Of a DNA stretch of 64,000 bases, positions 54,324 to 54,456 are shown piece after piece. Origin of the DNA: Escherichia coli (lineage in GTDB: Bacteria > Pseudomonadota > Gammaproteobacteria > Enterobacterales > Enterobacteriaceae); assembly GCF_003334355.1 (NCBI RefSeq), contig NZ_QOWP01000004.1; one strand, given 5' to 3'. The translations under genes and the position numbers were made by a program. Numbering within the stretch: position 1 is the first letter of the stretch; each line of letters opens with the position of its first letter. The notes under the pieces are model-generated. The model was given only the letters and a program-made list of their open reading frames with translations. It was not told the DNA's origin and made no database searches.

Positions 54324-54340
54324 TTGCAGCCTCTCATAAT

Positions 54341-54360
54341 AACTGTGATTTTATACAGTA
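54341..54360. promoter_or_regulatory. LexA (SOS) box upstream of yebG
   Basis: aaCTGTgattttatACAGta: perfect CTGT-N8-ACAG, 18-37 bp upstream of the yebG start. Confidence 0.75.
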
Positions 54361-54403
54361 TATTTCTTTTCGGTTGAGAAATCAACATCAGCAATAAAGA
54401 CAC

Positions 54404-54419
54404 ACGCAAACGTTTTCGT
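54404..54419 (+). promoter_or_regulatory. PurR box upstream of purT
   Basis: ACGCAAACGTTTTCGT matches the PUR-box consensus (AcGCAAACGTTTtCnT), about 40 bp upstream of the purT ATG. Confidence 0.7.
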
Positions 54420-54456
54420 TTATACTGCGCGCGGAATTAATCAGGGGATATTCGTT

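Follow-up and report, generated by a model that had tools for sequence, protein, structure and literature searches.

The window, i.e., the whole 64-kb stretch of DNA that was analyzed, is a part of the E. coli chromosome, and the identities of its genes were taken from the RefSeq annotation. In this annotation, yebF and yebG lie on the minus strand and are followed by purT on the plus strand, eda/kdgA and edd. The spacer between the divergent yebG and purT genes occupies positions 54324-54456 (133 bp), with the start codon of yebG at one end (complement, 54321-54323) and the purT ATG at the other (54457). It is identical to the spacer of K-12 MG1655, and the 2.1 kb around it matched all of the 5426 complete E. 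coli genomes in RefSeq. The features of the locus are listed in Table 1. The first-pass annotation, which was made from the sequence alone, had named the two genes yebG and purT and had assigned a LexA operator and a PurR operator to the DNA between them; these names and assignments were right and agree with published experiments.

Table 1. Coordinates of the features at the yebG-purT locus, with their identity to the window over 65 Enterobacteriaceae species
Feature	Position	Strand	Description	Basis	Identity to window (65 species)
yebG CDS	54033..54323	-	96 aa, stop included; DNA damage-inducible protein YebG, PF07130	ORF list, RefSeq, homologues named YebG	
yebG ribosome-binding site	54330..54333	-	GAGG, 6 nt before ATG; putative role	Read from sequence	
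LexA operator (SOS box)	54341..54360	.	aaCTGTgattttatACAGta; TACTGTATAAAATCACAGTT on the yebG strand	Sequence, matrix, conservation, published box	1.00 (CTGT and ACAG)
Predicted yebG -10	54357..54362	-	TATACT; overlaps the LexA box by 4 bp	Promoter scan, RpoD genomic SELEX table	0.98
yebG promoter spacer					0.42
Predicted yebG -35	54380..54385	-	TTGATT; 17-bp spacer	Promoter scan, RpoD genomic SELEX table	0.68 (moderate)
Segment between -35 hexamers	54386..54396	.	Poorly conserved; holds the 8-128 bp insertions seen in 8 of 65 species		0.45
Predicted purT -35	54397..54402	+	AAGACA; 18-bp spacer	Promoter scan, RpoD genomic SELEX table	0.97
PurR operator (PUR box)	54404..54419	.	ACGCAAACGTTTTCGT; ACGAAAACGTTTGCGT on the minus strand	Sequence, matrix, ChIP-chip, Sort-Seq	0.98
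Predicted purT -10	54421..54426	+	TATACT	Promoter scan, RpoD genomic SELEX table	0.97
GC-rich stretch	54427..54434	+	GCGCGCGG; directly after purT -10 (discriminator position)	Read from sequence	
purT ribosome-binding site	54444..54448	+	GGGGA, 8 nt before ATG; putative role	Read from sequence	
purT CDS	54457..55635	+	392 aa, stop included; formate-dependent GAR transformylase	ORF list, RefSeq	

The sequence GCAGCCTC at the yebG ribosome-binding site was conserved across species in the alignment. Within the yebG coding region, an in-frame internal AUG corresponds to M17 (54273-54275 of the window, minus strand), and this methionine was invariant in a 10-sequence alignment. By ribosome profiling and tagging, a shorter YebG proteoform starting from M17 has been reported in Salmonella and E. 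coli (PMC11005335). When positions 52000-57000 were scanned with Rfam at E <= 1, no match was obtained inside the spacer. The scan gave two weak matches to naRNA4 in the yebE-yebF intergenic region (53480-53628; 28 and 27 bits against a gathering score of 59.5), which are most likely REP-type repeats. The repeat search of the spacer found only the palindrome of the PUR box, a GC-rich palindrome at the -10/start region of purT and a 9-nt chance repeat.

To locate the promoters, positions 53900-54700 were scanned with the promoter consensus. Just two promoter-like sites were found, TTGATT-17-TATACT on the minus strand (54385 to 54357) and AAGACA-18-TATACT on the plus strand (54397 to 54426). Identical hexamers are listed for the yebG-purT spacer in the genomic SELEX table of the RpoD holoenzyme. 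The predicted -35 hexamers stand back to back, 11 bp apart, and the core promoters do not overlap. Judging from the hexamers, transcription would start near 54350 for yebG, which is within the LexA box, and near 54433 for purT. The two boxes are 61 bp apart from centre to centre, and the gap of about 45 bp that had been claimed between them is correct when it is counted from ACAG to the PUR box (54359-54403). Relative to the predicted start sites, the centre of the PUR box is at about -61.5 of yebG, and the LexA box is about 83 bp upstream of the purT start, outside the purT core promoter. Each operator was found within its own predicted promoter only, and neither an overlap nor a joint operator was observed.

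The perfect CTGT-N8-ACAG claimed for the LexA box does exist, since the sequence aaCTGTgattttatACAGta at 54341-54360 reads exactly so. By itself, the bare CTGT-N8-ACAG pattern is not rare: two matches were found in the window against 0.61 expected, and at least two were found in 13 of 100 shuffles. A search with the 20-bp LexA consensus at up to three mismatches gave no match and missed the yebG box, which carries five mismatches. Therefore, a matrix test was adopted. The LexA matrix was built from 14 boxes of a UV tiling-array paper, with yebG left out. The yebG box scored 20.2 bits, the best score in the window (next best, 13.7 bits), and only one of 400 shuffled windows reached this value. 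The training sites scored from 14.4 to 28.5 bits, and the yebG box falls within this range of validated boxes by the leave-one-out matrix. The position is also that of an operator in a core promoter, because the box overlaps the predicted -10 and covers the start site deduced from the hexamers.

Published experiments support this assignment. By Sort-Seq, Belliveau 2018 (PNAS 115:E4796, PMC6003448) confirmed the LexA and RNAP sites of yebG and its induction by mitomycin C; compared with the computational annotation of 1997, the RNAP site was shifted downstream by 9 bp. The actual yebG -10 could thus be TAAAAT, which lies within the LexA box, in place of TATACT. Whichever of these hexamers is used, the LexA box covers the yebG -10. 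In a 2024 AZT study, yebG was induced 4.4-fold by AZT with a 9.7-fold lexA dependence. The UV tiling-array paper describes a UV-induced yebG-yebF transcript carrying an identical LexA box, and Salmonella yebG was induced 41-fold by nalidixic acid. Like the canonical SOS promoters (sulA, umuDC and dinD), the yebG promoter has CTGT-N8-ACAG with an AT-rich centre in the core promoter, and its induction by DNA damage is, according to the published work, dependent on lexA. Compared with these promoters, the yebG box is middling, with a heterology index (HI) of 6.3 in the 2024 AZT study and a score of 20.2 bits against the median of 22.2 bits for the training sites.

Several further observations concern LexA boxes. 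In O157:H7 strains, T is replaced by C at 54351, in the centre of the box (CTGTGATTCTATACAG). In E. coli MS 21-1 (NZ_CP146670.1, L002 585-2500), the yebG LexA box is interrupted by ISEc53, an ISL3-like element that carries a passenger gene of the ClbS/DfsB family. The insertion has an 8-bp target duplication, GATTTTAT, which corresponds to the AT-rich middle of the box. In this strain, yebG is about 1.9 kb away from its promoter, and the purT promoter and the PUR box are intact. Among 30 records sampled over the identity range of the 5426 genomes, MS 21-1 was the only one with a match broken inside the spacer. Besides the yebG box, the window has a single CTGT-N8-ACAG, CTGTTGATTTGAACAG at 16822-16837, which precedes by 9 bp the start of yoaA (minus strand, start 16813; 636 aa), an SOS-listed gene for a DinG-family helicase. 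This box is weak; its published HI is 13, and it scored just 5.6 bits on the LexA matrix built here.

The PUR box proposed at 54404-54419 was also confirmed, and the sequence there is ACGCAAACGTTTTCGT. On the minus strand, ACGAAAACGTTTGCGT is a full match to the 16-bp PUR consensus ACGNAAACGTTTGCNT with its central CG. The symmetric PUR consensus at up to one mismatch was found once in the window and was absent from 100 shuffles. A PurR matrix was prepared from 27 ChIP-supported sites of Cho 2011, with purT left out. The PUR box scored 24.6 bits, the best in the window (next best, 14.4 bits), and none of 400 shuffled windows reached this score. In comparison with the other PurR sites, the purT box tops all 27 matrix sites, of which the maximum is 23.4 bits. 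The box is placed between the predicted -35 and -10 of purT, as is expected for a PurR operator.

The same placement was reported by Belliveau 2018 (PMC6003448), in which the purT -35 and -10 flank the repressor site in Sort-Seq. The repressor site was seen with adenine and was gone in a purR deletion strain, affinity chromatography of the site enriched PurR with hypoxanthine, and a simple-repression model with PurR as the only repressor was used for purT. In the PurR ChIP-chip data of Cho 2011, the peak assigned to purT lists ACGAAAACGTTTGCGT, the reverse complement of the box in the window, with log2 enrichments of 2.00 with adenine and 1.02 without adenine. Cho 2011 also includes purT in the set of genes that PurR represses in the presence of adenine, and states in general that PurR operators sit at -35/-10 elements. 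Thus, purT resembles the PurR-repressed purF, purMN and purC in that a 16-bp PUR box matching the consensus is located at the core promoter and, according to the published data, is occupied with adenine.

The sole departure of the PUR box from the symmetric consensus is at its position 13 (54416), where T stands instead of G (TTTTCGT). Since this T is kept in all 65 species, the asymmetry of the box seems to have been selected rather than to have arisen by drift. In strains 317 and N47, the first base of the PUR box (54404) is changed from A to G, and G is common at this position in other species. The remaining spacer substitutions among the sampled E. coli are found between the yebG -10 and -35 or between the promoters. 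The discriminator position of purT is GC-rich in all aligned species. GC-rich discriminators are typical of ppGpp/DksA-sensitive promoters. The purT discriminator might be related to the reported SspA dependence of purT.

To compare the locus across species, one genome per species was scanned with a YebG alignment. This yielded 66 loci, 65 of which were from Enterobacteriaceae, covering Escherichia, Citrobacter, Salmonella, Klebsiella, Raoultella, Kosakonia, Phytobacter, Superficieibacter, Franconibacter and other genera. In all 65 Enterobacteriaceae, purT was the divergent neighbour of yebG. A perfect CTGT-N8-ACAG was present upstream of yebG in 63 of the 65 species, and a PUR box with up to three mismatches was present in every one. 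The LexA box was 23-29 bp from the yebG start codon, and the PUR box was 43-49 bp from the purT start codon. As a candidate, a third conserved element in the spacer was considered and rejected, since the LexA and PUR boxes, the hexamers of the promoters and the ribosome-binding site of yebG explain every strongly conserved block.

The centre-to-centre distance of the boxes was 59-62 bp in 57 species, and 69, 71, 73, 93 or 188 bp in the eight others. These eight species carry insertions of 8, 11, 13, 33 or 128 bp between the boxes, and both boxes are intact. Thus, neither a fixed spacing nor a fixed phasing of the operators was found across the 65 species. The sizes of the insertions (+8/9, +11, +13, +33 and +128 bp) do not regularly correspond to full turns of the helix, and the cases are too few for an argument in either direction.

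Individual insertions were also inspected. In Escherichia sp. E1V33 and E. whittamii (L010 and L011), an 8-bp tandem duplication, CAAGCAAT, is present between the -35 hexamers. In K. pneumoniae (L061), an insertion of about 9-11 bp between the -35 hexamers creates the palindrome CGCGCGTTACGCGCG. These observations point to an indel-prone segment between the -35 hexamers. In Klebsiella spallanzanii (L063), the 128-bp insertion lies between the promoters, and both operators are kept. This insert folds as a long hairpin (-65.5 kcal/mol; z-score, -7.2), and the repeat has a median of six detectable copies per E. coli genome. Because of the long hairpin and the copy number, the insert looks like an intergenic repeat of the ERIC/IRU type.

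Distant yebG homologues were sampled from a protein-representative search. Those with 44-55% identity had no adjacent purT, and a LexA box was located 13-57 bp upstream of the start codon. This distant set consists of Pseudidiomarina mangrovi and the homologues on loci L075-L079, and the PUR box was absent from it; the LexA box was found upstream of the homologues on L072 and L075-L079. In the case of a 60%-identical homologue that is still adjoined by purT, both boxes were present. Thus, the LexA box accompanies yebG, and a PUR box occurs only where purT is the neighbour.

Based on these results, we consider, with a probability of about 0.9, that the spacer contains two back-to-back sigma-70 promoters, each of which is repressed sterically by its own repressor, and that these act independently. 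The two operators are genuine, and their arrangement as a whole has been described before. Their sequences, positions, statistics and conservation were observed directly, and binding and regulation by each repressor have been shown in the literature. We infer the steric mechanism and the exact start sites. A LexA dimer on the SOS box would cover the yebG -10 and the predicted start site and would thereby exclude RNA polymerase; upon DNA damage, RecA-stimulated self-cleavage of LexA would free the yebG promoter. When purines are plentiful, PurR with hypoxanthine or guanine would bind to the PUR box and block the purT promoter. The independence of the two promoters is suggested by the lack of reported distal features, in plasmid reporters, together with the evolutionary argument.

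A common third factor, such as the nucleoid protein H-NS in the AT-rich spacer or SspA on the polymerase, could set the levels of both promoters in addition to LexA and PurR. Oh and Kim are said to have found in 1999 that H-NS and cAMP affect the induction of yebG. The genomic SELEX table marks the yebG-purT spacer 'HNS', and the 2024 AZT study reports that purT is SspA-dependent in untreated cells and that yebG shows a 1.5-fold SspA dependence after AZT. However, the same SspA dependence is common to other pur operons according to that study, and hence is not specific to this spacer. Furthermore, no further protein site in the spacer is reported from the Sort-Seq of Belliveau 2018 (PMC6003448), and the segment between the promoters is poorly conserved. 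We therefore regard a shared factor as unlikely.

The first-pass annotation had suggested that repressor occupancy at one promoter might influence the other. Such an effect, in which the occupancy of one repressor or the firing of one promoter alters the other promoter, could arise by several routes: PurR might bend the DNA at about -61.5 of yebG and disturb upstream contacts of RNA polymerase, the polymerase might be competed for, or divergent transcription might generate negative supercoiling. In a coupling of this kind, PurR on the PUR box, at about -61.5 of the predicted yebG start, would act on yebG, and the firing of yebG in the SOS response would send negative supercoils into the purT promoter. 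The geometry leaves room for these routes. The operators are close (61 bp from centre to centre, with 11 bp between the -35 hexamers), the distance of 59-62 bp is kept in 57 of the 65 species, and upstream contacts of RNA polymerase, which extend to about -55, would reach the -35 of the other promoter. In addition, the yebG Sort-Seq was carried out in glucose with or without mitomycin C, and PurR was bound under adenine (Belliveau 2018, PMC6003448).

Nevertheless, the suggested influence found no support. The promoters do not overlap, the spacing of the boxes is variable, and the LexA box is present where purT is not. In Sort-Seq of the spacer in both orientations, with three 60-bp windows mutagenized per promoter, the features reported by Belliveau 2018 (PMC6003448) were promoter-proximal only; this paper plotted only the windows with apparent regulation. 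The purT promoter was fitted there by PurR alone, and no effect of LexA on purT is reported in that paper. The main text of Cho 2011 does not mention yebG as a gene that responds to PurR. AZT lowers the purine genes collectively, and no effect particular to purT is reported. Under multiple stresses, the pur genes move together and yebG moves in the opposite direction. Moreover, conservation within the spacer is lowest between the promoters, and eight species keep both boxes in spite of insertions of up to 128 bp between them. Our literature search for a direct genetic test of the effect of an operator on the opposite gene found none. Cross-talk between the promoters is accordingly very unlikely in our estimation, and there is only a slim chance that a modest, condition-dependent coupling of purine status and one SOS gene exists.

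The idea that one or both motifs are functionless chance matches has a negligible probability: the bare CTGT-N8-ACAG is not significantly enriched in the window, but the matrix scores were met by 0 (PurR) and 1 (LexA) of 400 shuffled windows, both boxes are near-invariant over 65 species, and the published binding and regulation experiments have already refuted it.

The yebG-purT arrangement can be compared with known systems. In the divergent uvrA-ssb pair, one LexA box serves both genes. The yebG-purT pair is like uvrA-ssb in that the genes are divergent and a LexA box is in a short spacer. In contrast to uvrA-ssb, the LexA box here is situated downstream of the predicted yebG -35 and is not part of the purT core promoter. 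The yebG-purT region studied by Belliveau 2018 is the same DNA, with no sequence difference from the window. What is new beyond that work is the survey of 65 species, the variation in spacing and the distant yebG homologues.

A cross-effect, if true, would add a minor case of interference between promoters, in which the supply of purines is linked to DNA-damage signalling. As it stands, the yebG-purT spacer is a textbook-style pair of simple-repression promoters that has already been dissected base by base, and the finding itself matters little. Each operator stays anchored to its own gene, while the intervening DNA drifts and takes up insertions. Thus, the locus illustrates cleanly that operators belonging to different regulons can be closely packed without necessarily being coupled.
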